A stretch of 53,345 nt of DNA from Mesotaenium endlicherianum (GCA_009602735.1 WELA01003458.1:1-53345); one strand, 5' to 3'; positions 5,572-21,883 are shown, counted from the first letter of the stretch. The notes: generated by a model not told the origin, from the sequence alone. A program made the numbers and translations.

Positions 5572-7250
5572 TTGTTGTCACTTGCAAGCGGTGTGGGGTT
5601 ATCGATATTGAATCGGGGAGCGCCCGGTCCGCTGTTCTTATTAACATTGATCAAAGCAGGCGTATAAGCCAGTACCAATATGATGATCATGGCAATGATC
5701 CAGGGTTTGAACTGGTCGAACAAAGGCACTCTTTTTTCATCGTGATAAGCTTCGCTTACCGGAATTTCCAGCGAGCCTGCTGCTTTTCTCTTCCGCAGAA
5801 TGGTTCCGAAGAAAGCTATAATAAACAACATGCCGGCAGTGAACATTACAATGCCCCCCATCATGGCCAGTGTGGTCGTAGGAACCCAGTCGCTGCGGAA
5901 TAATTCGCTCTTAGGGTTGAGATAACTGATGCCCAGGTTGGTCCTTCTTGGTTCTCCGCGCAACCCTCCCCAGCTCATACCGAAAGAAAAGACCAGCATA
6001 CCCATCATCCACAAATAGGGAACGATGGTAACGATCTTACGCATGAATACCGGTTTTCCACTCATACCTGAATAGAGATACAGGCTCATACCCACAATAG
6101 CAAGGAATACCGGTCCGGCTACCGTCATGTGAAAATGCCCGGGTAACCATGCTGTATTGTGCACTACTGTATTCAGGGAATAAGAAGCATTGATGATACC
6201 GGTAACGCCACCGAAAATAAAAAGGATGAGTCCGCATATAAAATAAGAGAACAGGAAATTGTTTTCATCGAACCAGGGTAGTTTTTTCATCCATCCGAAC
6301 AATCCTTTCGCGCCTCTTTGTCTTCCTGCATATTCCAGTGATGCTGCTAATGTAAACGCAGTGATGAAACTGGGAATAGTTACGCCATAGGTAAGCATTC
6401 CCTGGAAAAATTTAACTCCTTGTGTAATGGAAGGATCGCTGTATTGATGGTGCACACCTACGGGAACAGAGAAGAGCAGGAACAGGAACAGCGCCATTCT
6501 GCCGGCCAGATCAGAGTAGAGCTTTCCGCCCGCCACTTTAGGCAAAATGGTATAGAACATGATATAAGCCGGTAACAACCAGAAATACACCAGTGCGTGG
6601 CCAAAGAACCAGAACAGGGTCCTGGCGAGGGCCACATTTACAGTGGTTGTCCAGCCCAGCGACCAGGGTACCAGTAATACCAATACCTCATATGCCACTG
6701 CCAGGGTGCACACAAACCAAATGGTGAAATTTATCAATGTACCGATAACAGCCAACGGCGTCTTGGTTTCGGCATGAACTTTCTTCCATTGCGTGTACAT
6801 CACGGCCCAGTTAAAAAAAGGCACCCAGGATCCTACGATGAGCAATGCCGTTCCGATATAAAACAAAGGATGCGCTTTCAATGGCGGGTAAAAAGTATAC
6901 AATACCGATGCTTTTCCTGCCAGCATGGCCCAGGATGCCATCAACGTTCCGCCCAGCATCAGTGCAAAGCTGAACCACATTAATTTTTTATTAGGCTCCT
7001 GTTTGAGGTAATAGGTCATGGTGGCGTGACCGAACGCTACTGCAAAAAAAGTTGTAAGCACAATGGCGTTGATCACACCATGCAGGGTCAGGCCCTGGTA
7101 ATAACCCAGTTTGGCAAAAGAAGTGTCCTGTAACACACCGGCACGGTAAATGGTTTGCATCAGTCCGTGGTAGATACCAATGATCAGCAGCGCAACGGGG
7201 ATGGACAATTCCAGGAAAATGATTCGTTTAAAAGTCTTTGATACTTGCAT
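5568..7250 (-). CDS. cbaA: B-family (ba3-type) heme-copper oxygen reductase subunit I
   Basis: YYQGLTLHG, FWFFGHALVYFWLLPAY (His-Tyr crosslink), GVHHQY, VHNTAWLPGHFH, PRRT. Start set at ATG 7250. Confidence 0.93.
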   Translation of the reverse strand: MQVSKTFKRIIFLELSIPVALLIIGIYHGLMQTIYRAGVLQDTSFAKLGYYQGLTLHGVINAIVLTTFFAVAFGHATMTYYLKQEPNKKLMWFSFALMLGGTLMASWAMLAGKASVLYTFYPPLKAHPLFYIGTALLIVGSWVPFFNWAVMYTQWKKVHAETKTPLAVIGTLINFTIWFVCTLAVAYEVLVLLVPWSLGWTTTVNVALARTLFWFFGHALVYFWLLPAYIMFYTILPKVAGGKLYSDLAGRMALFLFLLFSVPVGVHHQYSDPSITQGVKFFQGMLTYGVTIPSFITAFTLAASLEYAGRQRGAKGLFGWMKKLPWFDENNFLFSYFICGLILFIFGGVTGIINASYSLNTVVHNTAWLPGHFHMTVAGPVFLAIVGMSLYLYSGMSGKPVFMRKIVTIVPYLWMMGMLVFSFGMSWGGLRGEPRRTNLGISYLNPKSELFRSDWVPTTTLAMMGGIVMFTAGMLFIIAFFGTILRKRKAAGSLEIPVSEAYHDEKRVPLFDQFKPWIIAMIIILVLAYTPALINVNKNSGPGAPRFNIDNPTPLASDNK

Positions 7251-7260
7251 GACGTTGGTT

Positions 7261-7719
7261 TTACTTAGCATCGGGATAATTCACGTATACCTGTGCGTGC
7301 ATGTTCTGGTGTCCTACGCCACAATATTCATGGCATACGATATCATACACACCGGGTTTATCAAATTTGACAGTTGTTTTGTTGATGGATCCGTATACTG
7401 CCATCATGTTCACATTCTTCTGTGCAATATTGAATCCATGCACTACGTCTTTGGACGTTACATAAAAATCCACTTCACTGCCCACAGGAATGTATATCTC
7501 AGCCGGCTGGAACTGCCACATGGAAGCCACGCTGAAAACCTGGTAGGTCTTATCGTCCAGCTTATTCACTTTGGGTTCTGCATATGCTTTATCATAAGGC
7601 AGGCATTCGGGTACATTACTCTTATATTTTTTCATAGCATAGAGCAATGAAAAAACAAAGAGGCCCATGACTGCCATGGAAGAGAAGATGATACGCTTTT
7701 CTATTTTGTCTATGGCCAT
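7261..7719 (-). CDS. cbaB: ba3-type oxidase subunit II (CuA)
   Basis: DVVHGF and CHEYCGVGHQNM CuA motif; single N-terminal TM helix. Confidence 0.93.
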   Translation of the reverse strand: MAIDKIEKRIIFSSMAVMGLFVFSLLYAMKKYKSNVPECLPYDKAYAEPKVNKLDDKTYQVFSVASMWQFQPAEIYIPVGSEVDFYVTSKDVVHGFNIAQKNVNMMAVYGSINKTTVKFDKPGVYDIVCHEYCGVGHQNMHAQVYVNYPDAK

Positions 7720-7730: not shown

Positions 7731-7853
7731 TTAGGTTCTGTTAATCATTAAAAAATAAATACTGTACCAGAAGATCAGAGCCAGCACTACGAGCGCAATG
7801 AAAAATGCGATGGCGCCGGAAGGGAAGAAGGGTTTTTCGTTCGATGCATCCAT
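7731..7853 (-). CDS. cbaD: ba3-type oxidase subunit IIa (40 aa, absent from the ORF track)
   Basis: Manual translation gives MDASNEKPFFPSGAIAFFIALVVLALIFWYSIYFLMINRT*. Single TM helix with the P.GA...FW...Y....R pattern of subunit IIa, directly upstream of subunit II. Confidence 0.88.
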   Translation of the reverse strand: MDASNEKPFFPSGAIAFFIALVVLALIFWYSIYFLMINRT

Positions 7854-7882
7854 AAATTGAAGTATTGCTGAAAATGATTGCA

Positions 7883-7949
7883 CAAAACTATTCAGACCCC
7901 GCTGCGTTAAGCATGACCTGGGGGATTTAGAACACCTGATTTTAATCAG
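7883..7949 (-). promoter_or_regulatory. cba operon promoter with Crp/Fnr-type sites
   Basis: TAGTTTTG (-) at 7890-7883; half-site GTCAT ending at 7913; perfect palindrome CTGAT-ttta-ATCAG at 7936-7949. Confidence 0.7.
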
Positions 7950-7983
7950 TTGGCATCTTGAGGTGGGTCAGTTTTATCCCGGG

Positions 7984-8049
7984 CTGATGAATATCTGTTG
8001 CATTACTAACATCCGTCACCTGCTGCACAAAAAGTCAATGTTAGTTTTG
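7984..8049 (+). promoter_or_regulatory. hemN promoter with Crp/Fnr-type sites
   Basis: CTGAT-gaat-ATCTG 7984-7997, CTAAC-atcc-GTCAC 8006-8019, TAGTTTTG 8042-8049. Confidence 0.65.
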
Positions 8050-8052
8050 GGC

Positions 8053-9432
8053 ATGATGAATGAAATAACCATACCTCCTTTGTTGATCAAGAAATACAAC
8101 CAGCCTGTTCCGCGTTACACCAGTTATCCAACCGTTCCTTTCTGGCAGAATATTATTTCCCGGCCTCAATGGACCGACCGGTTCCAGCAAGAGTTCTCAC
8201 TCGAAAATGTGCGCAATGGAATCAGCATATACATACACCTTCCTTTCTGCGAATCACTGTGTACTTATTGTGGTTGCAATAAAAAAATAACTTCCAATCA
8301 TGCGGTGGAAGAGCCCTATTTGCAGACCATAGAAAAAGAATGGAAACTGTACAGGGGGCTGATGCAGCAAACACCGGTGATCAGGGAACTACACCTGGGC
8401 GGCGGCACGCCCACTTTCTTTTCTCCGCTGAACCTGCGCCGGCTAATTAACACTATACTAAAGAACAGCATCGTACACCCCATGCATGAATTCAGCATTG
8501 AAGGTCACCCGAATAATACCACACCGGAGCATTTGAAAGTACTCGCGTCTTTGGGATTCAAACGCATCAGCTATGGCGTGCAGGACATGGACCCGGAAGT
8601 GCAACGCGTTATCAATCGGATACAACCGTTTGCAAACGTGCAACATGCAACAGAGGAGGCGAGAAAAGCAGGTTTTAGTTCCGTGAATTTTGATCTCATT
8701 TATGGCTTGCCGCTGCAAACAGTGGCAGGACTGCGAAACACTTTCAACCAGGTACTGGCCCTGAAACCCGACAGGATCGCTTTCTATAGTTATGCGCATG
8801 TTCCCTGGACCAGTAAAATGCAGCGGCTATTCAACGAATCGCAACTGCCGGCTCCGGAAGAGAAAATGCAACTGTACCTGGAAGGCAGGTCTTTATTGAT
8901 AAATAATGGCTATCATGATATTGGCATGGACCATTTTGCATTGCCCAACGACTCCCTGTTCCTGGCCAAAGAAAAAGGCAAGCTGCACCGTAATTTTATG
9001 GGATATACTACGCAAAATAATGAGTTCCTGGTGGGACTCGGTGTATCCGCTATCAGCGATATCGGTAATGCCTTCGCCCAGAACGAAAAGAGCCTGCATG
9101 ATTATTATCATGCTATCAGCAATGGCATGCTGGCAGTAAAAAAGGGGTATTTCCTCAATAAAGAAGACCTTCATTTCAGGCGTTATATCAAAGAGATTAC
9201 CTGTAACGGCTCCACATCATTCAATAAAGAAGATAGGGACCCCTTGGGGACTTATTCTTTTCCGGTACTGGCTCAATTGCAAAAAGACGGGCTGGTCGAT
9301 TATGATCTGAAAGGCGCTTCGCTTACAGCAATTGGTCATTATTTTATCCGCAATGTCTGTAGCGCTTTCGACCTGTACCTGCAAAGGAGCTCGGTGGCAG
9401 ATAGCAGAACATTATTCAGCAAAGCAATATAA
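8053..9432 (+). CDS. hemN: Oxygen-independent coproporphyrinogen III oxidase
   Basis: PRYTSYPT, YIHLPFCESLCTYCGC radical-SAM motif, HLGGGTPT, IGMDHFA, LHRNFMGYT. Start set at ATG 8053 (8056 also possible). Confidence 0.96.
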   Translation: MMNEITIPPLLIKKYNQPVPRYTSYPTVPFWQNIISRPQWTDRFQQEFSLENVRNGISIYIHLPFCESLCTYCGCNKKITSNHAVEEPYLQTIEKEWKLYRGLMQQTPVIRELHLGGGTPTFFSPLNLRRLINTILKNSIVHPMHEFSIEGHPNNTTPEHLKVLASLGFKRISYGVQDMDPEVQRVINRIQPFANVQHATEEARKAGFSSVNFDLIYGLPLQTVAGLRNTFNQVLALKPDRIAFYSYAHVPWTSKMQRLFNESQLPAPEEKMQLYLEGRSLLINNGYHDIGMDHFALPNDSLFLAKEKGKLHRNFMGYTTQNNEFLVGLGVSAISDIGNAFAQNEKSLHDYYHAISNGMLAVKKGYFLNKEDLHFRRYIKEITCNGSTSFNKEDRDPLGTYSFPVLAQLQKDGLVDYDLKGASLTAIGHYFIRNVCSAFDLYLQRSSVADSRTLFSKAI

Positions 9433-9446
9433 AAGCCATTTGTTGT

Positions 9447-9875
9447 TCAGATCAAATATGCCAGGCCGTTGTTTACCGGGTTGCACAGGTCAGCGATCTT
9501 CTTGCTGGCAAATATTTTATACGTCAGTTCACGCGCCGCTTTATACTCATAGTGTATGGGACAGGGCCGCGATGCTGAACATTTTTTCAAACCCAGTCCG
9601 CATTGTGTAAACAACTCTTTCCCTTCAATGGCATCGACTATATGAATAATAGGGCGTTTCAACTGCTCTCTGGAAATATGAAATCCACCCGAGGGTCCTT
9701 TCACACTGTTGATGATCCCCGCTCTTGCCAGCGTTTGCAATACCTTGCCCACTGTATGTTCGCTGGCATCTATATAGCCGGCAATTTCCCGGATACCGGC
9801 GTTATCGTTACCGTCCTGTTGAGAAGCCAGGTAAATAACGGCTTTAATGGCTGTCTGACTCATCTGGTTGAGCAT
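9447..9875 (-). CDS. Rrf2 family regulator with three Cys (NsrR-like Fe-S sensor)
   Basis: S.KGPSGGF wing motif; CGLGLKKCSASRPCPIH; last gene of the ric operon. Confidence 0.92.
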   Translation of the reverse strand: MLNQMSQTAIKAVIYLASQQDGNDNAGIREIAGYIDASEHTVGKVLQTLARAGIINSVKGPSGGFHISREQLKRPIIHIVDAIEGKELFTQCGLGLKKCSASRPCPIHYEYKAARELTYKIFASKKIADLCNPVNNGLAYLI

Positions 9876-9879
9876 AGTA

Positions 9880-10203
9880 TCAACGGTTTAAAAAAAGTTT
9901 ACCTGCCTCCGATATCCTGTCGTGCTTCCATGGCGGATCGAAACTCAGGTTGACTGCAATCTGTTCACCGGCAAAAATACTGGACAACACTTTTTCAACA
10001 GCATGGGTAATAGATGCCCCCATGGGACAAAAAGGGGTGGTCAGGGTCATGGTAACTTCTATTTTCTGGCAGGCGTCATCAAAATCCAACCGGTAAACCA
10101 GGCCCAGATCAACAATATTCAATCCGATTTCCGGGTCTATCACTTGTTGAAGCGCCGCCAGTGCAATAGTACACTTAATATTATTGTTGGTCATTACATT
10201 CAT
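9880..10203 (-). CDS. DUF59 / SufT-like metal-sulfur cluster assembly factor
   Basis: VIDPEIGLNIVDLGLVY, MTLTTPFCPMG, FDPPW. Confidence 0.95.
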   Translation of the reverse strand: MNVMTNNNIKCTIALAALQQVIDPEIGLNIVDLGLVYRLDFDDACQKIEVTMTLTTPFCPMGASITHAVEKVLSSIFAGEQIAVNLSFDPPWKHDRISEAGKLFLNR

Positions 10204-11465
10204 GTGTGAACCGGTTGATGCATGAATAGTTTAGCCACATTGAGGTTAAAAAGCAAAGAAGCAATTAACAGCAGTACCGAACCCGTTTGCAGAAATGGGA
10301 TCTGTTCCGTAAAAATGCCTGTCAGAAAAACGCTGAACCCAGTCATGTAAACCAATGCCATCGCCGCAAACCATTTATGACTGTATAGGTTGCCCGGGCC
10401 CTGCTTTTTATCTGAAACCACCGCATCATAGCGCCTTTTGTTCCAGATGATAAAAGGCAGCGTTTTAAATGTCATACCCAATATCAGGGTGGTGATCCAG
10501 CCAAAAAAGATCACAAAGCCATACGCTTTGAATAGCGCCAGTTTACCTGATGATACTCCCGGCGCAGCCAATAGTGACAAGAGAAGCAATACAGGTAAAA
10601 AAGTCATCACAATAGACAGAAGGGATATTTTCACCGGTGTATCGGTTGTTTTGCGAATACGTTCCTGGTATGCCCGCCGGCAGTAGTAACCAAATTGCAG
10701 TATCGCCGTTAACAAGCCGGTAAGAGGTACAAAATACCAGTCCGGGGGCGCCTGTCCCAGGAACAAAATAACAAAAGCAATAAGGCTTGCATTGATGAAC
10801 CAGTAAATGATTTTCAATAAGTGAACACTTTCATATTTCGACAACAGAAACATAGGTATCAGCCTGGTTCCCACGCCTACTATCATCAACAAGAACCAAC
10901 CGGCAATACCCATGTGTGCATGAAGAGAAAGATAATACAGGGAATCTTTTGAAAGTACATTGTTACTGAAATTGAATACCAGCAGCAAACCCACCAATGT
11001 GGTCAGTAATAACCAGCAGGCAGCAGCAACCATGAAAAGTCCATGCATGTTTTGATGCCGGCTCCTGGTATAACTACCCACCTGGTTAATCACATAACAA
11101 GCAACAGATACATTGATCAGTATAGCACCCGCCTGTGCGGGTATACCCATATCGAAAACGTAAAAAGCATATACCAGGAGCGGAATGCCGGCAGCCGCTG
11201 CAAAAAACGAAACATACGCCAACGTTTCGCTGAACAGATCACTTTCGGTAATAACGGGCATCAATTGATAACTGGCGCCCAGGATCATCATAGTGCCCCA
11301 ACCCAGGGCCATACTGTGTGTAACAGCCAATATATGGGGATGAAAATAATGTCCCGTAAATGCCTGAACCGACAAGCAAAGCAATGACATTGCCGCGCAT
11401 AATGATACGGCTGCATAACCATAGAAAGGCAATACTATTGTATGGGGTGTTGTTTTCGCGATCAT
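10200..11465 (-). CDS. Polytopic His-containing membrane protein (distant NnrS / heme-copper subunit I-like)
   Basis: About 12 hydrophobic segments; THSMALGW, LHAHMGIAGW and a third FVIFFGW repeat. Confidence 0.75.
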   Translation of the reverse strand: MIAKTTPHTIVLPFYGYAAVSLCAAMSLLCLSVQAFTGHYFHPHILAVTHSMALGWGTMMILGASYQLMPVITESDLFSETLAYVSFFAAAAGIPLLVYAFYVFDMGIPAQAGAILINVSVACYVINQVGSYTRSRHQNMHGLFMVAAACWLLLTTLVGLLLVFNFSNNVLSKDSLYYLSLHAHMGIAGWFLLMIVGVGTRLIPMFLLSKYESVHLLKIIYWFINASLIAFVILFLGQAPPDWYFVPLTGLLTAILQFGYYCRRAYQERIRKTTDTPVKISLLSIVMTFLPVLLLLSLLAAPGVSSGKLALFKAYGFVIFFGWITTLILGMTFKTLPFIIWNKRRYDAVVSDKKQGPGNLYSHKWFAAMALVYMTGFSVFLTGIFTEQIPFLQTGSVLLLIASLLFNLNVAKLFMHQPVHT

Positions 11466-11469
11466 TAGA

Positions 11470-12264
11470 TCAGCTTTTATAGATCAATAGTTGCACACCT
11501 TCATTTCCCAACTCCCTGATGCGATAACTAAAGCGTCGCTGTTCCAGTTCGGGTAACAGGAACACTGGTACTCTTTTGTGATGAACCAATAACGCCTCGC
11601 CAGGTTCCAGTTGATCCAATGTTTCCAGTATCTTCATCATAGGTAAAGGCATCGCAAGCATCCGCACATCCAATTCACGTAACCGGTGTTCAAAATCCGT
11701 CATTAACCGGTACCAGTCATCATGCATATCAGGTTTATCTTCCGGTATAGTGGTAGTTCCTTCCTTATAAAAAAAGGCTTCTACCACTCCGTTGTGCAAT
11801 GCTGTTGCATAGGAGGCAAATCCCTGTTTTTTTAACAACAGCATTAAAGGAGTAGGTTCAAAACTATTGATGATCTTCAATGCCTGTTGATCCTGTAATT
11901 GTTTCACTTGTTCAAGAATATCGGGAAGTGGATCTCTTCCCGCAGCAATGATGGGTCGCACATCCAGTTCAATGAAGTTGTCCGGGTATATCCGTGCTTC
12001 CGAATGAGTTAATGTTTTTACCGAATCCGCTGCCGTAGTCGTATCCACCTTAAAACCAAGCGGTTCCAGCTTATTGCGAAAATCATCAATGGTACAACCG
12101 GCAACTTTACAAGCCATGGCAACGCTGGTTCTTGCTGCCATCAGCTTGCGGATCAGGGGATTGCGTAATTTCTCAAAATGTGTACTAATGCCCATTATAG
12201 CATCCAATGCTCCCGGGTGTTCCTTGAGTATATTACTGATCTTAGTATTTGCATGAACTTCCAT
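11470..12264 (-). CDS. DUF1858 plus tandem DUF2249 domain protein
   Basis: ELDVRP...GRDP..INSFEPTPL and ELDVRML..PLPM..IL...HKRVPVFL repeats. Start set at ATG 12264. Confidence 0.85.
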   Translation of the reverse strand: MEVHANTKISNILKEHPGALDAIMGISTHFEKLRNPLIRKLMAARTSVAMACKVAGCTIDDFRNKLEPLGFKVDTTTAADSVKTLTHSEARIYPDNFIELDVRPIIAAGRDPLPDILEQVKQLQDQQALKIINSFEPTPLMLLLKKQGFASYATALHNGVVEAFFYKEGTTTIPEDKPDMHDDWYRLMTDFEHRLRELDVRMLAMPLPMMKILETLDQLEPGEALLVHHKRVPVFLLPELEQRRFSYRIRELGNEGVQLLIYKS

Positions 12265-13222
12265 TATCCGTGATTTGTTTTTCCCTCTCCACTGCTTTAG
12301 GGAATAAGATATTATTCTCCAGGTGGATATGCGTATACAGGTCTGTTTCAAATGCCGCTAACATTTTATACAGCAGGCTATAGCTGGCACAAGCATCTTC
12401 CGGAATGGCAAAACCTCCGCTGAGCGTCCTGATCTTATGCATGGCGGTCCCTACCAGCTCGTGTTCCATTTCCATCATGTTGATAGGGTTTTTTACTGTT
12501 CCGAAATGCGCTGCCTGGTGTAATTGAGACTGGTTACGAGCCGCCGCCAGGTCTTTTATGTAAGGGAATAATACTTTTTCCTCCTTCGTCATATGTGCCA
12601 TCATCTCTTCATAAATTACTTCCACCTGCCGCTGTATCTCTGCTAATTCAGGGTGCTCTTTGCCATGTACCCTTAACACTTTCAACGCATATCCCCTGAT
12701 CTCAGGAAGGTTTTTCCGTGTATAAGCATGGTGAACATTAACAATATAATCGGCCAAAAAGCCGGGCTCCCATTCGTTATAAGGAAGTGAAGCTGACACG
12801 GGCGCCTCGTTAGCTTGTTGCAGCTCCTGTTCAATCTTCACTATATCCAATCCTTTTTCCAAACAAGCTTCTTTCACCGTTTTCTTTCCCCCGCAACAGA
12901 AATCAAGTCCATTTTTTTTAAACACTGCTGCTTTGCGCAGGTCTTTTGCCGCTATTTCGCCAATCGTTTCGTCGTTTTCCTCGCTGGAACGCTTGGTAAT
13001 ATTCACTTTCCACCATCGGGGGCCTTGTTCAGTGTATTCCCATTTAAAAATATTTCCTCTCTCCCCCAATAGCTGGTAATACAGGGGCTTGGGGTCATGA
13101 TCGTTATGAATAGTCAATGTTTCTCCGTCATTGAGTTGATCAAAACGGTCGAAAATGGTTGGGTGCTTCTGGCGTGGCTCCAGCATTGTCACATCCAGGA
13201 TATTCTGATTGATTATTTCCAT
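12242..13222 (-). CDS. ric: Iron-sulfur cluster repair di-iron protein with N-terminal DUF2249 domain
   Basis: LDVT..EPRQKHPTIF..NDHDPKPLYYQ (DUF2249), LDFCCGG, HHAY, HMTKEE, EH, HIHLENNILFP. Start ATG 13222 lies downstream of the -7 box. Confidence 0.95.
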   Translation of the reverse strand: MEIINQNILDVTMLEPRQKHPTIFDRFDQLNDGETLTIHNDHDPKPLYYQLLGERGNIFKWEYTEQGPRWWKVNITKRSSEENDETIGEIAAKDLRKAAVFKKNGLDFCCGGKKTVKEACLEKGLDIVKIEQELQQANEAPVSASLPYNEWEPGFLADYIVNVHHAYTRKNLPEIRGYALKVLRVHGKEHPELAEIQRQVEVIYEEMMAHMTKEEKVLFPYIKDLAAARNQSQLHQAAHFGTVKNPINMMEMEHELVGTAMHKIRTLSGGFAIPEDACASYSLLYKMLAAFETDLYTHIHLENNILFPKAVEREKQITDNGSSCKY

Positions 13223-13246
13223 CGTGTTTATTTTTTGATGATAGCA

Positions 13247-13294
13247 CAAAATTAGACTTTTGTCAAAATAAAAGTATTTACTTACTTTTATTTT
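13247..13294 (-). promoter_or_regulatory. ric promoter with overlapping inverted-repeat operator (candidate Rrf2 site)
   Basis: TAATTTTG (-) at 13254-13247; perfect inverted repeat AAAATAAAAGTA-N6-TACTTTTATTTT at 13265-13294. Confidence 0.7.
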
Positions 13295-13324
13295 ACATAA
13301 AACGAAACAGAATCATGGAGGCAC

Positions 13325-13389
13325 CTGATTAAGATCAGGAGGCATGGTATTTGTATCATAATAAAAAAATCATCACTTTTATTTCTTTG
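13325..13389 (+). promoter_or_regulatory. Promoter of the second His-rich membrane protein with Crp/Fnr-type sites
   Basis: CTGAT-taag-ATCAG 13325-13338; half-site ATCAT ending at 13359; near-consensus TTTCTTTG 13382-13389. Confidence 0.6.
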
Positions 13390-13392
13390 CAT

Positions 13393-14607
13393 GTGCAAAT
13401 CGGAACATCTATACAACACCCTTCTTTACCCGTGTTGGAAAAGCGTTTATACCGGATCTCCTTATTCAATCTCTTTCTTGTTTCGCTTATTGGCTTGTAT
13501 CTGCGTTCTGCCCCGGTAGCAAGCATCTGGACCGGGTCGTATAAAAATATATTACACGCCCATTCTCATTTCGCATTTGGCGGGTGGATCATGCCGGCGC
13601 TGGTAGCCTTGATCATCCGGTTCTTTCCTGAACTGGCCAACACTATTACATACAAGCATTGGAGGAATCTTTCGGTACTGCTACTGATAGCCGCATATGG
13701 CATGCTGGGCAGTTTCCCCTTCCAGGGATATGGTCCGGTCAGTATTTGCTTTTCTACATTGTCTATCATTGCCTCTTTTTATCTCGCCTGGCTGGTGTGG
13801 CGCGCGAGGGTTTCAGGCAAAGACAGTATTGCGCATCAATTTCTCCGGGCAGGTCTGTTTTACCTGGTGCTTTCATCAGCCGGCCCGTTCGCCACTGCAC
13901 CTCTTATTGCCATGGGCAAGGCTGGTAGCGCATTATATTTCAACGTCATTTATTTTTATCTGCACTTTCAATACAATGGCTGGTTCACTTTTGCCTTACT
14001 GGCTGTATTATATAAAATAACCGGTCATGCACCAGGACGTTATAGTAAAAACGCCTTCGCATTATTTAACATCTCCTGTATTCCCGCTTATTTTCTTTCG
14101 GTATTGTGGAGCCATCCCGCTCCTGCATTTTTCATAATAGCCACAGTAGCTGCTATTTTACAGTTGATTGCGCTGTTTTACCTGCTGGCCGATATCGTTG
14201 ACAATAACAGTAACCGCCGGCTGAATGGTTTGGTAAGGTTATCGCTGGGCATATTTGCCATGAAGATCATCCTGCAGTTACTCGGCGCTTTCCCAGCCAT
14301 TGCAGACATGAGTTATCTTCACCGGAATTTTATCATAGCTTATCTCCACCTGGTATTATTAGGCTTCGTCACTTTCTTCATCATGGGTGCAATGCATTTG
14401 CATGAATCACCGACGGAAAGGTCTTCCAAAAAATGGAGCATTTTATTCATTGCTACCTGGGTATTCACAGAAGGATTGTTGTTATTGCAGGCCACAGGAG
14501 AAGTGGCAGATTTTCAGATACCCAATTTTACAACATGGTTGTTCCTTGCAAGCTGTTTTTTCCCGGTAGCCATTCTGGGTATCTGGGTTAAAGATCTTTC
14601 TTCCTGA
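13393..14607 (+). CDS. Polytopic His-containing membrane protein (distant NnrS / heme-copper subunit I-like)
   Basis: About 12 TM segments with HAHSHFAFGGW, YLHFQYNGWF and YLHLVLLGF. The ORF is open from 13351; the start is uncertain and GTG 13393 was chosen from the promoter position. Confidence 0.75.
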   Translation: MQIGTSIQHPSLPVLEKRLYRISLFNLFLVSLIGLYLRSAPVASIWTGSYKNILHAHSHFAFGGWIMPALVALIIRFFPELANTITYKHWRNLSVLLLIAAYGMLGSFPFQGYGPVSICFSTLSIIASFYLAWLVWRARVSGKDSIAHQFLRAGLFYLVLSSAGPFATAPLIAMGKAGSALYFNVIYFYLHFQYNGWFTFALLAVLYKITGHAPGRYSKNAFALFNISCIPAYFLSVLWSHPAPAFFIIATVAAILQLIALFYLLADIVDNNSNRRLNGLVRLSLGIFAMKIILQLLGAFPAIADMSYLHRNFIIAYLHLVLLGFVTFFIMGAMHLHESPTERSSKKWSILFIATWVFTEGLLLLQATGEVADFQIPNFTTWLFLASCFFPVAILGIWVKDLSS

Positions 14608-15355
14608 ATATTTTCAGTGTAAGGAGCAAGGGCAGCGCTATCCACAGCAGCATAATACCCGTGGTAAAAGCAATACCCCAACCACTTCCGAAAAAAGATT
14701 TATATAAAGCACCTGTATATCCCATCAGGGCGCTTACATCCATCTTCAGCATAATGAAAATGCGCCCAAGATCTATCGGGTTGAGTGCAGATAATAACAA
14801 AGTGAATTTTTCCATCGGGTAATCGCTGAAAGCGAATAATATCAGTAAAACAAGTCCGTCGTATATCAATGCAAAATAAAACCATAATAATAAAGCGGCG
14901 CCAATACCTTTTGCCTTATCCCTTGCTTTTACAGAAGCAAGGAATGCGATAGAAGTAAAAGCCAATGTGAGTGCCGATCCGGTAAGCAAAAACGCAATAC
15001 CTGTTGCATCAAAAGCATAAATCAATACCGGTATCCCCACTCCCACCAAATAAGCAGCGGTCAGAGATGCCGATACACCTACGTATTCGCTTAAAAGTAT
15101 CCGGGTGCGGCTTAATGGCTGCGACAGCATCAGTTCTATAAATTCATAAGAGTTATAATAATGTATAGTGGTGAAGATCATACTAATCAAGGGGATGACG
15201 ATCAGCACAATGGTAAGCAGGCTCATCAGGGCTTTACTTTGATTCTCTTCCAGTTGAAACAAGCTAAGCGAAACCAACAGCAAGAATAGCGTATATACAA
15301 TGATTACCCTGTTACGGAGAATATCATACAGCACATAACGTGATAGTTTTCGCAT
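14588..15355 (-). CDS. nosY: NosY ABC transporter permease
   Basis: ELMLSQPLSR and LNPIDLGR motifs, multi-TM, follows nosF. Confidence 0.9.
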   Translation of the reverse strand: MRKLSRYVLYDILRNRVIIVYTLFLLLVSLSLFQLEENQSKALMSLLTIVLIVIPLISMIFTTIHYYNSYEFIELMLSQPLSRTRILLSEYVGVSASLTAAYLVGVGIPVLIYAFDATGIAFLLTGSALTLAFTSIAFLASVKARDKAKGIGAALLLWFYFALIYDGLVLLILFAFSDYPMEKFTLLLSALNPIDLGRIFIMLKMDVSALMGYTGALYKSFFGSGWGIAFTTGIMLLWIALPLLLTLKIFRKKDL

Positions 15356-15363
15356 AAAGCTTA

Positions 15364-16131
15364 TTAATTTGATTGATTATTTGTTTCCAGCATCAACACC
15401 TCGTCAATCCACAATGCGCTCTTTTTCTCTCCGTTCATGATACGGGCGATGGCCTTTCCTAATTTCTCTTCGCCAGTTTCTTTTCGCAGCTGTTCTATGC
15501 CTTTCAAAAAGATCATTTTCCCTTCCTGCAAATACATAACATGAGTGGTAAGATCATCGAGGTCACTGAGAATATGTGAAGTGATGAGGATGAGTTTGTT
15601 TTTTTGTTTCTCCTCCATGATCTTGGCTTTCAATATTTCCGATGAAAGCGGGTCGAGACCGGCGGTTGGTTCATCCAGGATGAGGATATCGGGATTGAAA
15701 TAAAAAGCCAGGGCTGCACTCACTTTCTGCCTGGTGCCGCCACTCAGCGTGCGCATGGGCTTGTCAAAAATAGAAGCCAGGTTGAATTTCACGAGCAGGT
15801 CGGTATCCAGCGCTGCCTCCGTTTTCATCCGGATGTCTTTCATCATAGTAAACAATTGCCCTACCCTCATATTATCAGGATAACGGCCTATCTGTGGCAT
15901 ATAACCGATGTGTTCCCGGTAAGCCGGGTCGTTCCCAATCTGTTGCCGGTTGATGAATATTTTTCCGGCATCTGGTCTTACCAGGCCCAATAAGGTTTTG
16001 ATAAGTGTTGTTTTCCCCGACCCGTTAGGTCCGATCAGGGATACCACCTGCCCCTCTGCAAAGAGCGCATTGATATCATCCAACACTTGCAGTCGCTTGA
16101 ATTTCTTTTTCAGGTTTTCTATTCTGATCAT
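15364..16131 (-). CDS. nosF: NosF ABC ATPase
   Basis: GPNGSGKTT, LSGGTRQK, ILILDEPTAGLDP; nos context. Confidence 0.92.
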   Translation of the reverse strand: MIRIENLKKKFKRLQVLDDINALFAEGQVVSLIGPNGSGKTTLIKTLLGLVRPDAGKIFINRQQIGNDPAYREHIGYMPQIGRYPDNMRVGQLFTMMKDIRMKTEAALDTDLLVKFNLASIFDKPMRTLSGGTRQKVSAALAFYFNPDILILDEPTAGLDPLSSEILKAKIMEEKQKNKLILITSHILSDLDDLTTHVMYLQEGKMIFLKGIEQLRKETGEEKLGKAIARIMNGEKKSALWIDEVLMLETNNQSN

Positions 16132-17360
16132 ATTTTCAATGGCTTTATCATCGGCTGACGGTCTACCAGGTTCTCCGGTGTGAGGCTGGGTATGGCCTTT
16201 TCCGCCTTATCGAGAAGGGTTACCATGAAGCTTCTCATAAGGATCATGGTTCCGGGCGTTTGCTCCACAATCATGGAATACATACTTACCGGGTGATAGG
16301 GTACGTCGCCAACCCCGTTTCTATCGATATCATAGCCTTCATATTTATCCCAATAATTGTTGTGCAATTTGTTCAGCACCATGGTGCCATTAGTAGCCAA
16401 ATCGAAACTGTTGCCAAAAAAATTGTTGTGATGAAAAACGTTATCGTCGCAACTCGCCTGTACTTTAACCGCCCAGCCGTTATTTCTGAAAATATTGCGC
16501 TCTATCTCTATCCTGCTCGCGCCCTCCATATAAATACCCGTTGTGTTCTTAAGGAATAAGTTGCTAACAATATGGCTATCTGTGATCTCTTTCAGCAAAA
16601 GTCCATATGACGAAGCGCCCCAGTTTGCTTCAAAGTGGTTACGCTCCATGGTCACATGTTTGGAATACATCACAGCAACCCCGGCTCCGTTGTTACGAAA
16701 AATATTTTCGATATAATGATCACCATGGGAAAACATGAAATGCAAGCCATACCGGATATTTTTTTCACTCAGGTTCTTCCGGATAACCGATTCCGTTACA
16801 AATTCAAAATAGATGCCATCGCGGTAGCCGGTTACCTGGTTGCCTTCTATCAATGCATGGTTACTCTTCCATAAATGAATGCCATTGCCGGTCAATTGCT
16901 CCGTCTTGGGTATCCCTACAATCCTGTTGTTGCGGATAGTGCAGTAGGCTGCATTAGAAATATGAAAAGCGAAATAAGCATCATATACCAGGTTATCTTC
17001 CAGTAATACATAACTGGCATCAATCAGTTTTACCGCAGCATAATCGTTCAATGCCGAATAACCCGCATGATGGAATTGCAATTTTTTAATAGTAACATGG
17101 CTCCCGCTGATAACGAGTAATTCCTGTTTATGATCGCCATCCAGTATGGTATTGCCTTCACCCAAAACAGTGACCGGCCGGGTAATCACTATCCTGCCTT
17201 CTTTGTATACGCCATTGCGGAGCCTTATGGTATCGCCGTCCCTGGCCAGTTGCACAGCGGCTGTCAGTGTTTTCACAGGTTGCCCAACGCCCGCTACAAT
17301 GGTGCGGGCCAGCGTTACATGTGAACAGATCAACCACGATATGAGGAATAAAAACCGCAT
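16128..17360 (-). CDS. nosD: NosD maturation protein
   Basis: GNGIHLW, RDGIY, RYGLHFMFS, NYWDKYEGYD...GVGD.PY. Confidence 0.96.
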   Translation of the reverse strand: MRFLFLISWLICSHVTLARTIVAGVGQPVKTLTAAVQLARDGDTIRLRNGVYKEGRIVITRPVTVLGEGNTILDGDHKQELLVISGSHVTIKKLQFHHAGYSALNDYAAVKLIDASYVLLEDNLVYDAYFAFHISNAAYCTIRNNRIVGIPKTEQLTGNGIHLWKSNHALIEGNQVTGYRDGIYFEFVTESVIRKNLSEKNIRYGLHFMFSHGDHYIENIFRNNGAGVAVMYSKHVTMERNHFEANWGASSYGLLLKEITDSHIVSNLFLKNTTGIYMEGASRIEIERNIFRNNGWAVKVQASCDDNVFHHNNFFGNSFDLATNGTMVLNKLHNNYWDKYEGYDIDRNGVGDVPYHPVSMYSMIVEQTPGTMILMRSFMVTLLDKAEKAIPSLTPENLVDRQPMIKPLKI

Positions 17361-17364
17361 TGCT

Positions 17365-18396
17365 TTATTTCAATTTAGCCTGTACAGCTTCCCAGTCCAG
17401 TACAACATAAGATGATGTATCAACTATTTTTGCCTGGGCCGCAGCTTTTGTTTTAAAGCCGGCTGTATTGCCACCCATCGGACTTTTCAATGTGTTACCG
17501 TTTAAAAAACTGGCATCCTGGGCCTTGAGAAAAGTATTCGGCTGATCAAAATCAACGACCCAGGATTGCGCCAGTCCATTATCTTTCCGGTCATTCATGC
17601 GCATATAGGAAATCATACATTTCAGGTCATCGAATTTGTATGTCTTTCCTTTTCCAGTGATGATCTCGCCTCCATACCGGGTATCGCTGATGCCCATTTT
17701 ACAGAACGTGCAAAAATCTTTTCCTGGCTGAAAGGGTTCAGGTGATGCAGGAGAACATGCGTTCAGCAAAAACAGCATTATGCAAACTACAGCCACAGCA
17801 GGCGCCGCCCGCCTGCTCGCTTTTCTATGGCGATACCATTCCATAAACCATACCACGAAAGAGAGACAGCCGGCAGCGATCACTACCCATCCACCCACAC
17901 CGGGCAGGGAATAGGCATCGAAATTCAACAACCGCTTATGCCCTAACAATGGAGGCTGATAGGAAAGTCCCGGCACTTGTATAGGCGCTTTTGGATCCAG
18001 GTTATGCCCGTAATCATAGCCCCACTGGTAAAAATCATACATAGCCAGTAACCCGCCCAGGAGGGTGAGTAATAAATACAGGAATAAGACCTTTCGCTTG
18101 CCGGTAATAGCTACTGTTACACCCAGTAACATGAAAAACAACACCACATAAGGCAGGAAACGGAATTCCGGAAACATAGCAACTGTAATATGTTTCATGC
18201 CTATATAATGATTGAGGCCGTTGATCACATCCACATCACCCGATATTCCGTTGATCCATATATTCATGGTCAGTCCCTCCGGATACTGTGGTGCAAAAAG
18301 ATCAATACGCCATGCAGGAAGAAAGAAAACAACAATCAATGCTCCTGATGCAAATGCCACCAGTATCCGCGATACAATACTCAATTGATTGTTCAT
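17365..18396 (-). CDS. nosL: NosB-like membrane domain fused to NosL
   Basis: APQYPEGL, INGLNHYIGM, YGHNLDP.API (NosB-like) followed by CTFCKM, FDDLKCM, SPMGG (NosL). Confidence 0.9.
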   Translation of the reverse strand: MNNQLSIVSRILVAFASGALIVVFFLPAWRIDLFAPQYPEGLTMNIWINGISGDVDVINGLNHYIGMKHITVAMFPEFRFLPYVVLFFMLLGVTVAITGKRKVLFLYLLLTLLGGLLAMYDFYQWGYDYGHNLDPKAPIQVPGLSYQPPLLGHKRLLNFDAYSLPGVGGWVVIAAGCLSFVVWFMEWYRHRKASRRAAPAVAVVCIMLFLLNACSPASPEPFQPGKDFCTFCKMGISDTRYGGEIITGKGKTYKFDDLKCMISYMRMNDRKDNGLAQSWVVDFDQPNTFLKAQDASFLNGNTLKSPMGGNTAGFKTKAAAQAKIVDTSSYVVLDWEAVQAKLK

Positions 18397-18411
18397 ATTG
18401 ATAGGTTAATA

Positions 18412-18439
18412 TGCGGTCTCTTATTATAAAGAGACCGCA
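18412..18439 (-). terminator. Stem-loop between nosZ and nosL (partial terminator or mRNA stabiliser)
   Basis: 11-bp perfect stem tgcggtctctt / aagagaccgca with 6-nt loop and a weak U-tract. Confidence 0.6.
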
Positions 18440-18449
18440 CAAGATTTGC

Positions 18450-20459
18450 TTATTTGGTTTTTCCATCGGTTGCTTTATAATCAGCCGCCGCTTTAATTGT
18501 ACCGGTTCCGTATATGATAGGAACATTCGATCCGGGAGCGCTTACCCTAATGTATCCTTGCATTTCCTGGTGAAGTGCAGAACAGAAGTCGGTGCAATAG
18601 AAGGGAAATACACCCGCTTTTTCAGGTACCCATTTCAATGTTTGTGTTTCGCCCGGCATGATCAGCAGCTCTGCATTGTTGGCGCCCTTGATGGCAAAGC
18701 CATGCGGAATGTCCCAGTCCTGCTCCAGGTTGGTAACATGGAAATAGACGGTTTCTCCCAGCTTCACCCCTTCTATATTATCAGGCGTAAAGTGCGAACG
18801 GATAGCAGTCATGTACACATGCACTTCATTGCCTTTGCGTTCTACCCTCGTATAATTATCGCCTTTGGCTGCAGCCGGGTGGGCATTTTCTTCTATCTTA
18901 TAGATCTTCTGGCTGTTCTTCATTACCAGCTCTGCAGGGATGGCCTCTCCATAGTGCGGTTCTCCTATGGTAGGGAAATCAAGCAGCAATTTCATCTTAT
19001 CACCGCTGATATCATAGAGCTGTGCACTTTGCGACAACTCCGGTCCGGTAGGCAGGTAACGGTCTTTCGTGATCTTGTTATAAGCGATCACATACTTACC
19101 CCAGGGTTTCCGGGTAGGTCCGCCTGGAACACTCAGGTGTCCGATAGAATAATAGGTAGGTACACGATCGAGTACTTTCAGGTCTTTGATATTCCATTTC
19201 ACAATTTCCGATGAAACAAAGAAAGAAGTATACGCATTTCCCTGATCGTCGAACTCTGTATGCAGCGGGCCTAATCCCGGTTTCTGCACTTCTCCGTGCA
19301 AGACCGCATCGTACTTCAACACAGGGATATCGTCATACGTGCCATCGAAATTTTTATCGGCAATCGCTTTCTGTATTTTGGTGAAGGAAAACACCGGAAT
19401 GGTAGCCGCCAGCTTGCCACTGCCTACTATGTATTCACCGGTAGGATCGGTATCGCACCCGTGGGGTGATTTGGGACAGGGCATGAAATAAACCATATCG
19501 GGACAATCTTTTGGATCCAGTACCAATACTTCATTCATAGTAGTTGAAGTAGCTGAGTGTTTTTTCTCGTCGTATTGATTATGGGTATATTTCACTGTTT
19601 TTTTAACGCCTTTACCGGCTTTCAGGTATTCTTCTGCTTTTTTCCAGTTCACTGCCATAATAAAATCCTTATCCTTTTGAGATGCATTCACTTCGAGCAA
19701 AGTGTTGGCTTTTTCTGAGTTATAGCAACTGAAGAATACCCAGCCATGTGACTTTCCTTTGCCGGCACGCGCCAGGTCGAAGTTGACACCAGGGGTCAGT
19801 ATCTGGAAAGCCAGGTTCATTTCACCTGAATTTTTATCTATGTTGATGAAGCTAACTGTTCCTTTGAAATTTTGTTTATAAGAACTAATCGGTACATCGG
19901 TATGATCTCCGAGGGGTATACTGAAACGGGTGCCTGCCACTACATACTCTGAATTTTCCGTAATAAATGGTGACGAGTGGTTGCCGGCACTATTGGGTAT
20001 CTCAATAATTTCAACAGTGCGGAAAGTTTTCAGGTCAACCCTTGCGATACGTGGCGTATTGTTGGCATTGGCAAACACCCATCTTCCATCGTGCAGGCCA
20101 TCTGTTTCTGATAATGCAATATGGTGCAAGTCATCCCAGGGAATAAAGCCGTTGGATGTGTTCAGCATGGCTTTGCTTTCTTCGCTGTAGCCATATCCTT
20201 TTTCCGGATCTACAGAGAAAACCGGGATCACACGGAGCAGCCGGCCGGATGGCAAACCATAGACCGACATCTGTCCGCTGAATCCTCCCGAAACAAAATC
20301 GTAAAACTCATCGTATTTACCGGGTGCAACATAGGTTTTCAAAGCAGCATCACCGCTGATAGCAGCCTGTGAGCCTTTGGGTTTGCATCCCAACATTTGC
20401 AAGGATGCACCTGCCAGCACCAGTGTTGCGAGCAGGGTTTTGTGGGAAAAGAATTTCAT
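18450..20459 (-). CDS. nosZ: Sec-dependent (clade II) nitrous-oxide reductase
   Basis: CuZ His motifs DLHH, GNH, PKSPHG, GPLH, IGH, EPH; CuA PHGF and CTDFCSALHQEM; no twin-arginine signal; SGGFSGQ..VYGLPSGR. Confidence 0.98.
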   Translation of the reverse strand: MKFFSHKTLLATLVLAGASLQMLGCKPKGSQAAISGDAALKTYVAPGKYDEFYDFVSGGFSGQMSVYGLPSGRLLRVIPVFSVDPEKGYGYSEESKAMLNTSNGFIPWDDLHHIALSETDGLHDGRWVFANANNTPRIARVDLKTFRTVEIIEIPNSAGNHSSPFITENSEYVVAGTRFSIPLGDHTDVPISSYKQNFKGTVSFINIDKNSGEMNLAFQILTPGVNFDLARAGKGKSHGWVFFSCYNSEKANTLLEVNASQKDKDFIMAVNWKKAEEYLKAGKGVKKTVKYTHNQYDEKKHSATSTTMNEVLVLDPKDCPDMVYFMPCPKSPHGCDTDPTGEYIVGSGKLAATIPVFSFTKIQKAIADKNFDGTYDDIPVLKYDAVLHGEVQKPGLGPLHTEFDDQGNAYTSFFVSSEIVKWNIKDLKVLDRVPTYYSIGHLSVPGGPTRKPWGKYVIAYNKITKDRYLPTGPELSQSAQLYDISGDKMKLLLDFPTIGEPHYGEAIPAELVMKNSQKIYKIEENAHPAAAKGDNYTRVERKGNEVHVYMTAIRSHFTPDNIEGVKLGETVYFHVTNLEQDWDIPHGFAIKGANNAELLIMPGETQTLKWVPEKAGVFPFYCTDFCSALHQEMQGYIRVSAPGSNVPIIYGTGTIKAAADYKATDGKTK

Positions 20460-20483
20460 CTGTCTGTTATTTGCGTTATAGGA

Positions 20484-20954
20484 TTATTTTTCTCCGTCGT
20501 TGTTCCGCATGAATTCCAGCACTTTGCGGGCGTCTTCTTTGACCAGGTTCTGGTTGGGCATGCGCACCATACACTGTTCCAGCAGTTTTTGTGCATCGGG
20601 GTCCTTCTCCAGCATCATGTCTACGTTGGTAATCATATTCATGATCCAAACAGGCTTTCTGCGTTTGGTAACATCTTTCCATCCTGGTCCCACCAGTTTC
20701 TCACCGCTAAGGCGGTGGCAGGACTGGCACTTCATTTCATAAATGCCTTTACCGGCGCTTACCCATTCTGCATTCAATGGGTTTGAAACAATTACATCGG
20801 ATTCTTTTAATTCGGCGCCATGTGTTTCAGGTTGGTTTTTGGTCATTTCCTGAACATCTACCGGTTTTTCGTCTTTTTTAACCCCTTCTGAACAAGCCAC
20901 TGCCAGTAGGGTTCCGGAGAGTAAACAGATCGTTAATGGTCGGATGATTTGCAT
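20484..20954 (-). CDS. Lipoprotein cytochrome c at the head of the nos operon
   Basis: LAVAC lipobox, CQSCH, VRMPNQ. Start set at ATG 20954. Confidence 0.92.
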   Translation of the reverse strand: MQIIRPLTICLLSGTLLAVACSEGVKKDEKPVDVQEMTKNQPETHGAELKESDVIVSNPLNAEWVSAGKGIYEMKCQSCHRLSGEKLVGPGWKDVTKRRKPVWIMNMITNVDMMLEKDPDAQKLLEQCMVRMPNQNLVKEDARKVLEFMRNNDGEK

Positions 20955-21011
20955 GGTATTATTTTTTAGTGAATGCACATTTATTAAGAGAGTCTTTTGT
21001 CTTTTATTGAT

Positions 21012-21107
21012 CAAAAGTATCCTGCCTGCCGTGCCTCATATATGACCAATCTCAAAAAAGTGAATGATCTTTATCAGGAAGGATGGAAACAGGCATTTTT
21101 ATTTTTG
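21012..21107. promoter_or_regulatory. Divergent nos / RIC-paralog promoters sharing two Crp/Fnr-type sites
   Basis: TACTTTTG (-) 21019-21012; ATGAC-caat-CTCAA 21042-21055; ATGAT-cttt-ATCAG 21064-21077; TATTTTTG (+) 21100-21107. Confidence 0.72.
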
Positions 21108-21112: not shown

Positions 21113-21883
21113 ATGACGCCATCCAACATTTCTGGCAAAGACGATCAGTTGCCATTGATAAATAAGCAAATGCCTGTTACGGAAATTGTGCAGAAAGATT
21201 ACCGCACAGCCGATGTATTTCTCAAATATGATATCGAATTCTGCTGCGGAGGCAAATGGCCGCTGGAAATGGTATGCGAATCCAAGCAACTGGATACTGC
21301 TGTTATATTACTTGAACTGGAAGAAGCCTGCCGGTTGATACAACTCCCGCAAGGGAGCAGGTTTGAAGACTGGGGCACCGGCTTTCTGATCGATTTCATT
21401 CAAAATGTTTATCACCGGTATTTTAAAAAAGCGCTGGAGACAACTGTCAATTATACCAATCGCTTCCTCGAAGGGCATCTCAAAAAATTTCCCGAGTTAG
21501 AAAAAACGCCGGAGATTCTTCACAAGCTGTCATTGGCCATCAACAAACGCATGAACAACGAAGAAGAATCTTTCTTTCCTTATATCAAACAGGTTACCAA
21601 CGCTTACCTGCGTAATGAATCGTATGCAGGTTTGCTGGTAAAAACATTGCGCAAACCATGGCAGGAAACCATGCAGCAGGAATACAGCGAAGCAATAAAA
21701 TGGCTGGATGAGCTGCGTTCTATTACAAAAGATTACTATTTACCTGATAATGCCTGTACCACACACCGCGTTAGCTTTTTAAAATTGCGGGAATTGGATC
21801 ATGAACTCACGCAATACCTGCAATTGGAGCATACCATATTATTACCCAGGGTTGTTGAGGTGGAACAGGCGCTGCTGGCCTGA
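21113..21883 (+). CDS. RIC-like protein (ScdA_N/DUF542 plus degenerate hemerythrin)
   Basis: IEFCCGG, FFPYI, PDNACTT; collinear with the ric copy but several His ligands are replaced. Start set at ATG 21113. Confidence 0.85.
   Translation: MTPSNISGKDDQLPLINKQMPVTEIVQKDYRTADVFLKYDIEFCCGGKWPLEMVCESKQLDTAVILLELEEACRLIQLPQGSRFEDWGTGFLIDFIQNVYHRYFKKALETTVNYTNRFLEGHLKKFPELEKTPEILHKLSLAINKRMNNEEESFFPYIKQVTNAYLRNESYAGLLVKTLRKPWQETMQQEYSEAIKWLDELRSITKDYYLPDNACTTHRVSFLKLRELDHELTQYLQLEHTILLPRVVEVEQALLA

Follow-up and report, generated by a model that had tools for sequence, protein, structure and literature searches.

In a 53,345-nt stretch of DNA listed under Mesotaenium endlicherianum (GCA_009602735.1 WELA01003458.1:1-53345; hereafter the window), five promoters between positions 7883 and 21107 carry two 14-bp Crp/Fnr-type sites in tandem upstream of a Bacteroidota-type -7 box. 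These promoters precede genes for a high-affinity oxidase, hemN, a membrane protein, nitrous oxide (N2O) reduction (nos) and a RIC paralog (ric). We conclude that the paired-box promoters are probably activated at low oxygen by the product of an adjacent gene, a response regulator that joins a receiver domain to a Crp-type DNA-binding domain (REC-Crp), once it is phosphorylated by a predicted heme oxygen-sensor kinase. The parts of this reading differ in strength. The boxes are almost certainly real class II activator sites. Judging from protein sequence, it is very likely that REC-Crp, encoded at 23177 or by a paralog, reads them, and the likely signal is oxygen. We also lean, by analogy, toward a role for the second box in cooperative loading. 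Papers are cited by PMC number, each for the parts of it that we drew on.

Paired sites in the window

The first-pass annotation of this DNA had reported an FNR-like half-site exactly 22 nt ahead of a -7 box in five promoters, with a second, similar site further upstream. All five pairs lie at the coordinates it gave, with 22 nt between half-site and box in each, and all five have a second 14-bp site, at end-to-end offsets of 23 (cba), 22 (hemN), 21 (membrane protein), 22 (nos) and 22 (ric) (Table 1). The order is distal site, proximal site, 22 nt and box, with 7–9 nt between the two sites, and the promoter unit can be written as [NTGAY-N4-RTCAN]-N8-[NTGAY-N4-RTCAN]-N22-TAnnTTTG. A relaxed scan of both strands, allowing up to 4 mismatches across both sites and the box, found these five promoters and no other match in the window. 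The membrane-protein promoter is the weakest, as position 2 of its box (TTTCTTTG) is not the consensus A; a homologous locus (L114) has a site 22 nt ahead of a box that resembles it and starts with TT.

The nos and ric promoters are a single divergent promoter that uses the same two sites back to back, so the window holds four independent site pairs rather than five. The cba and hemN promoters, likewise divergent, have a pair each, four sites in total. Strict matches in the window numbered 4, while 300 first-order Markov simulations averaged 0.39 and one of them reached 4. With a relaxed box the count was 5 against a mean of 1.02, and 3 of 300 simulations reached 5. Because the pattern was picked post hoc in this window, these statistics are suggestive, and the evidence from other genomes is decisive.

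The start codons of hemN (8053), ric (21113) and the hemN orthologs in five related loci (L007, L013, L015, L045 and L047) lie 3–7 nt past the -7 box. Since this places the start codon at or next to the predicted +1, the hemN and ric mRNAs are likely leaderless, which is an independent fit to the predicted start. The ric promoter likely drives the kinase and regulator genes as well. Elsewhere in the window, a perfect E. coli-type FNR palindrome (TTGAT-N4-ATCAA) at 259-272 has no -7 box at the matching gap.

Table 1. Promoter elements and cluster genes, numbered from the first nucleotide of the window.
Feature	Position	Strand	Remarks
cba -7 box TAGTTTTG, promoter of cbaD-cbaB-cbaA-sco-cyt c	7883..7890	-	start predicted near 7878; box at -12..-5 as in PMC9723704
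cba proximal site	7913..7926	-	consensus in promoter-side half only; predicted center -41.5
cba distal site	7936..7949	-	perfect palindrome CTGAT-N4-ATCAG, 23 bp upstream of proximal site
hemN distal site	7984..7997	+	1 mismatch
hemN proximal site	8006..8019	+	1 mismatch
hemN -7 box TAGTTTTG	8042..8049	+	ATG 3 nt downstream
membrane-protein distal site	13325..13338	+	perfect palindrome
membrane-protein proximal site	13346..13359	+	2 mismatches, in upstream half
membrane-protein -7 box TTTCTTTG	13382..13389	+	non-consensus
nos -7 box TACTTTTG, promoter of cyt c-nosZ-nosL-nosD-nosF-nosY	21012..21019	-	
shared site A	21042..21055		proximal for nos, distal for ric
shared site B	21064..21077		proximal for ric, distal for nos
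ric -7 box TATTTTTG	21100..21107	+	
B-family (ba3-type) heme-copper oxidase subunit I	5568..7271	-	7deg E 1e-166; 1ehk (ba3-type) E 1e-114; active-site His-x3-Tyr kept
oxidase subunit II (COX2)	7261..7719	-	
likely subunit IIa, 40-aa hydrophobic open reading frame	7731..7853	-	
hemN	8053..9432	+	TIGR00538 over cut-off
multi-pass membrane protein, ~405 aa	13393..14607	+	start codon uncertain
NosZ, Sec-dependent (clade II) N2O reductase	18450..20459	-	TIGR04246 over cut-off
cytochrome c, first gene of nos operon	20484..20954	-	
RIC/ScdA-like paralog	21113..21883	+	under TIGR03652 cut-off
PAS-HisKA-HATPase kinase, FixL-like PAS domain	21942..23180	+	ATG at 21942, 58 nt past ric stop
REC-cNMP-HTH_Crp response regulator	23177..24232	+	likely reader; overlaps kinase gene

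Conservation across related genomes

The regulator's closest named record is from Sediminibacterium magnilacihabitans (99% identity), and the 80 related loci are mostly from Chitinophagaceae. We built a gap histogram from 79 of these loci, excluding L001 as near-identical. RTCAN stood at gap 22 for 94 of 345 intergenic TAnnTTTG boxes and at gap 44 for 83, with 6 at gap 21, 8 at gap 23 and 0–11 at all other gaps, and the 507 boxes within coding DNA of the related loci gave no gap peak. The spacers held at most 0.31 bit per position against 0.7–2.2 at the conserved motif positions, and the outer base of the sites was A, C or T. The genes behind the conserved promoters (n = 103) included the nos cytochrome c (20, plus 3 labeled nosZ), rrf2 (13), ric (10), hemN (6) and cbaB (2), with 47 unlabeled. 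We then took 93 distinct promoters selected by the proximal half-site alone and allowed up to 1 mismatch in 8 in the second site; it was present at offset 22 in 67 and at 21–23 in 71.

The pattern also held in genome-wide scans with a control. The strict tandem pattern was found in 32 of 301 genomes of the phylum, all of the window's class except G257, and in none for the reversed control. A single perfect site plus box gave 362 matches, spread over 70 of the 80 genomes chosen (75 in-class and 5 out-of-class), against 14 for the control (hand-summed). In G001, the nearest genome and our stand-in for the window's own, there were 19 tandem matches at up to 3 mismatches and none for the control; they precede nos, hemN, ric, NirK-like copper protein, Hsp20, BON, dodecin, baeRF3 and DUF892 genes. 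Conservation computed across relatives shows that the layout is real.

Two further observations concern these genomes. An island of G001 (L101-L102; G001:C1:3100000-3139999) holds 10 of the 19 tandem matches together with a further PAS kinase/REC-Crp pair whose recognition helix is the same, and the genes of the island (Hsp20, BON, dodecin, baeRF3, DUF892, PfkB and D-2-hydroxyacid dehydrogenase) form a dormancy-like set. G257, from another class of the same phylum, has 31 perfect single-site promoters, 9 of them with a distal half-site, and one FNR with an N-terminal cysteine cluster (Cys-FNR); this is the largest regulon seen.

Class II geometry and mapped start sites

E. coli FNR and CRP and rhizobial FixK are class II systems. 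Class II Crp/Fnr promoters have a 14-bp palindrome near -41.5, 22 nt before the -10-equivalent box, and the promoters described here share this layout: the sites have a TGA-N6-TCA palindromic core and the same 22-nt gap. TAnnTTTG lies at -12..-5 (PMC9723704), which puts the center of the proximal site at -41.5 and that of the distal site at -63.5. NtcA class II promoters also have a 41.5 center and a 22-nt gap (PMC3898017). The shared spacing that the first-pass annotation had singled out is thus real, but it equals known class II Crp/Fnr geometry (PMC3898017, PMC9723704), and we rejected it as a new rule. Several features do set the present promoters apart. They have the TAnnTTTG/-33 core of Bacteroidota, whose promoters are of the -7/-33 type (PMC7366714); the outer base of the site is A, C or T rather than the T of FNR; a second site at -63.5 is usual near the regulator; and a receiver domain forms part of the likely reader. 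The proximal site spans the -33 zone, where TTG occurs in 4 of 93 site promoters against 38 of 231 others (L002-L080), and in 6 of 21 against 21 of 118 in family f7.

Published start sites of Flavobacterium psychrophilum place this geometry on expressed promoters. Cluster B199 comprises cbb3 genes, hemN, cytochrome c551/c552, a PAS protein and a small hypothetical gene, and anaerobic log2 changes are 4.76 for ccoS, 4.58 for ccoN and 3.05 for hemN (PMC9723704). By hand count, a site lies exactly 22 nt before the box at the starts of ccoI (GACCTTTG), ccoS (TAACTTTG), THC0290_0041 (TACTTTTG) and THC0290_1451 (TACTTTTA), all four of which are induced under anaerobiosis, e.g., ccoS at 14.9 vs 9.8–10.1 log2 (PMC9723704). 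Among 41 start sites of one part of the table, only ccoI and ccoS had a gap-22 site; feoA, whose perfect site lies at gap 21, shows no induction, though this could be confounded by iron control (PMC9723704). B199 thus resembles the window's promoters in box, gap and anaerobic induction, and differs in that f7 lacks the distal box; the published rows extend just 50 nt upstream, so a distal box is not visible there (PMC9723704).

A stand-alone Crp/Fnr gene adjoins ccoI in F. psychrophilum, and neither 'fnr' nor 'crp' occurs in the main text of PMC9723704. The ccoI site lies just upstream of the -7 box region of this divergent gene (row THC0290_T_1477), whose signal is somewhat lower under anaerobiosis (9.6 and 10.5 vs 11.0 and 11.8; PMC9723704). 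Autorepression of this Crp/Fnr gene is possible.

The second box

When RTCA is required at the distal position, 39 of the 362 perfect-site promoters remain, and 20 of 132 outside f1 (the window's family) and f7. Around the regulator genes, the 20 f7 loci had a gap-22 peak (21 of 140 boxes) and no gap-44 peak (3), whether the neighbor was REC-Crp or FNR. REC-Crp loci of other families (n = 17) gave 8 of 112 at gap 22 and 13 of 112 at gap 44, loci from FNR-only genomes (n = 15) gave 18 and 17 of 90, and five loci of other classes gave 0 of 9 boxes. The tandem pair is a trait of a promoter subset, mainly respiratory, outside f7, and it is common near REC-Crp. A tandem-site regulon, as first proposed, is still the best reading, but the second site is not obligatory: single-site forms dominate f7 and are common genome-wide in f1. 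Because the ccoS-led operons of f7 resemble those of F. psychrophilum, f7 is likely Flavobacteriaceae. In the window's own family and order, single-site class II promoters stand at L253, L254, L257, L262, L264 and L274; from N-terminal sequence, the genes behind them are presumably sulfide:quinone reductase, pyruvate formate-lyase, malate dehydrogenase, a tryptophanase-like enzyme, malic enzyme and hemN.

What might the distal box do? DevR (DosR) of Mycobacterium tuberculosis, a regulator with a NarL-type DNA-binding domain, offers the best parallel. At the divergent tgs1-Rv3131 promoter its boxes lie at -42.5 and -63.5, and activation is cooperative and phase-dependent (PMC3177182). The DevR system pairs a strong with a weak box on one DNA face near -42 and -63, is under hypoxia two-component control and has Hsp20 among its targets (PMC3177182); the boxes and Hsp20 have counterparts here, and the control a predicted one. 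Its box, however, is 18 bp rather than 14 bp and the output domain here is HTH_Crp; the likeness would be convergent, and we claim no homology. Consistent with a helping role, the upstream half of the proximal site has decayed in 18 promoters, and 16 of these have a near-perfect distal site, which favors help over repression.

It is also conceivable, though we consider it unlikely, that the distal box is no aid to activation and instead provides a separate input (a class I-like contact or a second regulator) or acts as an anti-activator at high regulator levels. M. tuberculosis whiB1 offers a precedent: its CRP sites at -58.5 and -37.5, 21 bp or about two helical turns apart, have opposite roles, one activating and one repressing (PMC2844151). 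Moreover, promoters with one site function in F. psychrophilum and occur often in f1, and G001 holds, besides two REC-Crp paralogs, four other Crp/Fnr proteins. Yet the 16 of 18 decayed promoters are what compensation would lead one to expect, and the offset, fixed at 22 in 67 of 71, suggests dimer-dimer contact. At whiB1, a single promoter, the repressing site is the proximal one (PMC2844151); in the present promoters, by contrast, the activating position is taken by the proximal site, and the pair recurs over a regulon.

The likely regulator and its predicted sensor kinase

An Atlas search confirmed the domain set of REC-Crp and its placement in Bacteroidota. The phospho-acceptor set is kept, with Asp52 in 119 of 120 distinct relatives, and the recognition-helix Glu and Arg, as in FNR/CRP, are present in all 120; the Ser position of E-x-x-S-R is Ile in 109. 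The N-terminal cysteine cluster of FNR is absent, since the single Cys of REC-Crp lies in the receiver domain (0–1 Cys in 86 of 120 relatives), and Tyr and Ala are aligned with the cyclic AMP-binding Glu72 and Arg82 of CRP. The PDB structures closest to the PAS domain of the kinase are FixL, and the proximal heme His aligns. Among 89 adjacent kinases this heme-ligand His is kept in 87 (the other 2 are gaps) and the HisKA phospho-His in all 89, and the ATPase domain is present. These 89 FixL-like PAS kinases lie within 600 nt of their REC-Crp genes, of which 116 were testable.

The rhizobial FixL-FixJ-FixK cascade targets a high-affinity oxidase, hemN and nos. The system described here resembles it in these targets, in its FixL-type PAS domain with proximal His and in its Crp/Fnr-type output. 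With receiver and Crp/Fnr domains in one protein, the transcription step from FixJ to fixK is not needed. It differs further in its paired boxes and in having, in the window, a B-family oxidase instead of cbb3.

REC-Crp was found in at least 41 of 301 genomes, with the best 6 candidates per genome scored. Of the 32 tandem-positive genomes, 21 have it; the other 11 have only stand-alone Crp/Fnr proteins with a similar TxxE[TS]xxR helix, each with at least one copy bearing an N-terminal Cys cluster. In a quick tree of 82 rows (every twelfth locus of L001-L080; proteins shorter than 215 aa and some of 240–319 aa left out), REC-Crp proteins fell on one side of a branch with support 99 and FNR-like proteins on the other. 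Within f1, 16 of 17 genomes have REC-Crp or Cys-FNR plus the motif (REC-Crp in 13, Cys-FNR in 4, one with both), and G255, the sole genome with neither, has no motif.

G001 encodes two REC-Crp paralogs with the same recognition helix and four more Crp/Fnr proteins over the Pfam cut-off, and no Cys-FNR was found in it at E 1e-45. Three Crp/Fnr proteins of G001 (L103, L105 and L106) combine an unusual YExxF(R/K) helix with an N-terminal Cys cluster and form a long-branch clade; one of this type lies between qNor and NirK-like genes. We rejected the YExxFR-type proteins as the general reader, since close relatives (at least 45% identity) occur in 4 of 80 genomes and the motif in 70. Given two REC-Crp proteins, no Cys-FNR and the rarity of YExxFR relatives, the reader is most likely REC-Crp, in the form of either paralog. 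The first-pass assignment to the protein at 23177 therefore stands as the best reading, but this is not the sole candidate, in view of the same-helix paralog in G001 and of the 11 genomes with a stand-alone FNR-like protein only.

These 11 genomes, where the FNR-like gene is often beside the motif, also bear on a second alternative, namely that the reader of the boxes is a stand-alone Crp/Fnr protein, such as the Cys-bearing ones beside the nor/nir genes of G001, via nitric oxide or an iron-sulfur cluster, with REC-Crp a mere neighbor. The presence of RIC and nos among the targets would fit, as would the three Cys-bearing Crp proteins of G001, one of them in a qNor/NirK-like cluster. However, the stand-alone proteins of G001 have the different YExxFR-type helices, with few relatives as noted above, and the helix-sharing FNR type was not found in G001, the genome on which this argument rests. 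We therefore regard such a reader as improbable.

Divergence and chance

Could the box pair be a by-product of back-to-back promoters, with one box per direction and the 22-bp offset arising from compact divergent spacing? The nos and ric promoters share two sites in just this fashion, and, under a loose pattern, a -7-like box stands on the opposite strand at the corresponding distance in 32 of 82 tandem promoters. The remaining 50 have none, so divergence does not explain the pair; cba and hemN own separate pairs, and the membrane-protein pair has no matching opposite box. These unshared pairs largely refute the idea and leave it very improbable. Chance alignment of short words in AT-rich intergenic DNA, which the post hoc choice of pattern and the 3 of 300 simulations with 5 relaxed matches might suggest, is ruled out for practical purposes by the sharp single-gap peaks across relatives (79 loci), the divergent spacers, the empty controls and the genome scan (32 of 301 vs 0).

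A model for activation

We propose that loss of O2 from the FixL-like PAS heme would turn the kinase on, and that the kinase would then phosphorylate Asp52 of REC-Crp. One dimer, bound at -41.5 where a -33 element would be, could recruit RNA polymerase, and a second dimer at -63.5, on the same DNA face, may help to load or stabilize the first. Such help would let the proximal box decay and would sharpen the switch. The nos/ric pair would fire in both directions and raise the levels of kinase and regulator, a putative positive feedback.

Several observations weigh against this model or narrow it. The related genomes are not independent of one another. A distal RTCA occurs in 0 of 164 perfect-site promoters of f7 and in 19 of 66 of f1, and a near-perfect distal site (at most 1 mismatch) in 3 of 29 readable loci of five tandem-poor genomes. 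Both sites are near-consensus in 55 of 93 promoters, so that a strong distal box loading a weak proximal one fits some only (16 of 93). No FixL-like kinase lies inside 600 nt for 27 of the 116 testable REC-Crp genes. Of 11 genomes in which neither REC-Crp nor Cys-FNR was found, 5 still hold 1–3 single-site matches, and 4 of 69 genomes with a regulator have no such match. In F. psychrophilum, the fifth start-mapped B199 unit, THC0290_0456, has a weak box at gap 21–22, and hemN has no start-site row (PMC9723704). As a single-site lineage with a stand-alone Crp/Fnr protein, F. psychrophilum supports class II activation but not the tandem or REC-Crp steps.

Other genes of the cluster

We take the small open reading frame ahead of oxidase subunit II to be cbaD. 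The oxidase keeps its active-site Tyr, and on this ground we rejected the reading that it is a nitric oxide reductase. Pfam and NCBIfam searches gave no match for the membrane protein at 13393-14607; it has 7 homologs among the related loci examined, apart from the window and G001. Between hemN and this gene, an operon on the minus strand (9447-13254) encodes DUF2249-RIC, DUF1858/DUF2249, a COX1-like membrane protein, a SufT-like protein and an Rrf2 regulator; although a consensus -7 box is present at 13254, there is no class II site with it, and other control is likely. Directly downstream of the regulator, also on the minus strand (24229-25754), a bactofilin gene overlaps a gene for an actin-like protein (ALP_N).

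Implications

A search of the Bacteroidota literature, which mostly did not extend to subscription papers and could have missed synonyms, found no description of the motif, regulon or regulator. The gap itself is known, but the literature searched gave no account of its use on a promoter of Bacteroidota, of a second box throughout a regulon or of a kinase/REC-Crp pair as reader. The regulon suggests that the primary sigma factor of Bacteroidota (sigma-A) is compatible with class II activation, and for the Crp family, binding at paired sites 22 bp apart throughout a regulon would be out of the ordinary.

It is tempting to speculate further, at somewhat less than even odds, that aerobic Bacteroidota share a phylum-wide low-oxygen regulon in which one box at -41.5 is read interchangeably by an iron-sulfur FNR or by a heme-kinase/REC-Crp system. 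Outside one family, respiratory and N2O genes would add an abutting -63.5 box for cooperative binding, giving a sharp, DosR-convergent switch that times nosZ in clade II N2O reducers.

Members of the Bacteroidota that carry clade II nosZ are commonly seen as sinks for N2O in the environment, and we found no account, in the literature searched, of how they switch nosZ on. The pattern predicts an operator, its position, start sites, a reader and a sensor, which makes the question directly testable, and it offers a sequence-based way to predict low-oxygen regulons throughout the phylum. If true, it would explain how the N2O-destroying enzyme is turned on in these bacteria.

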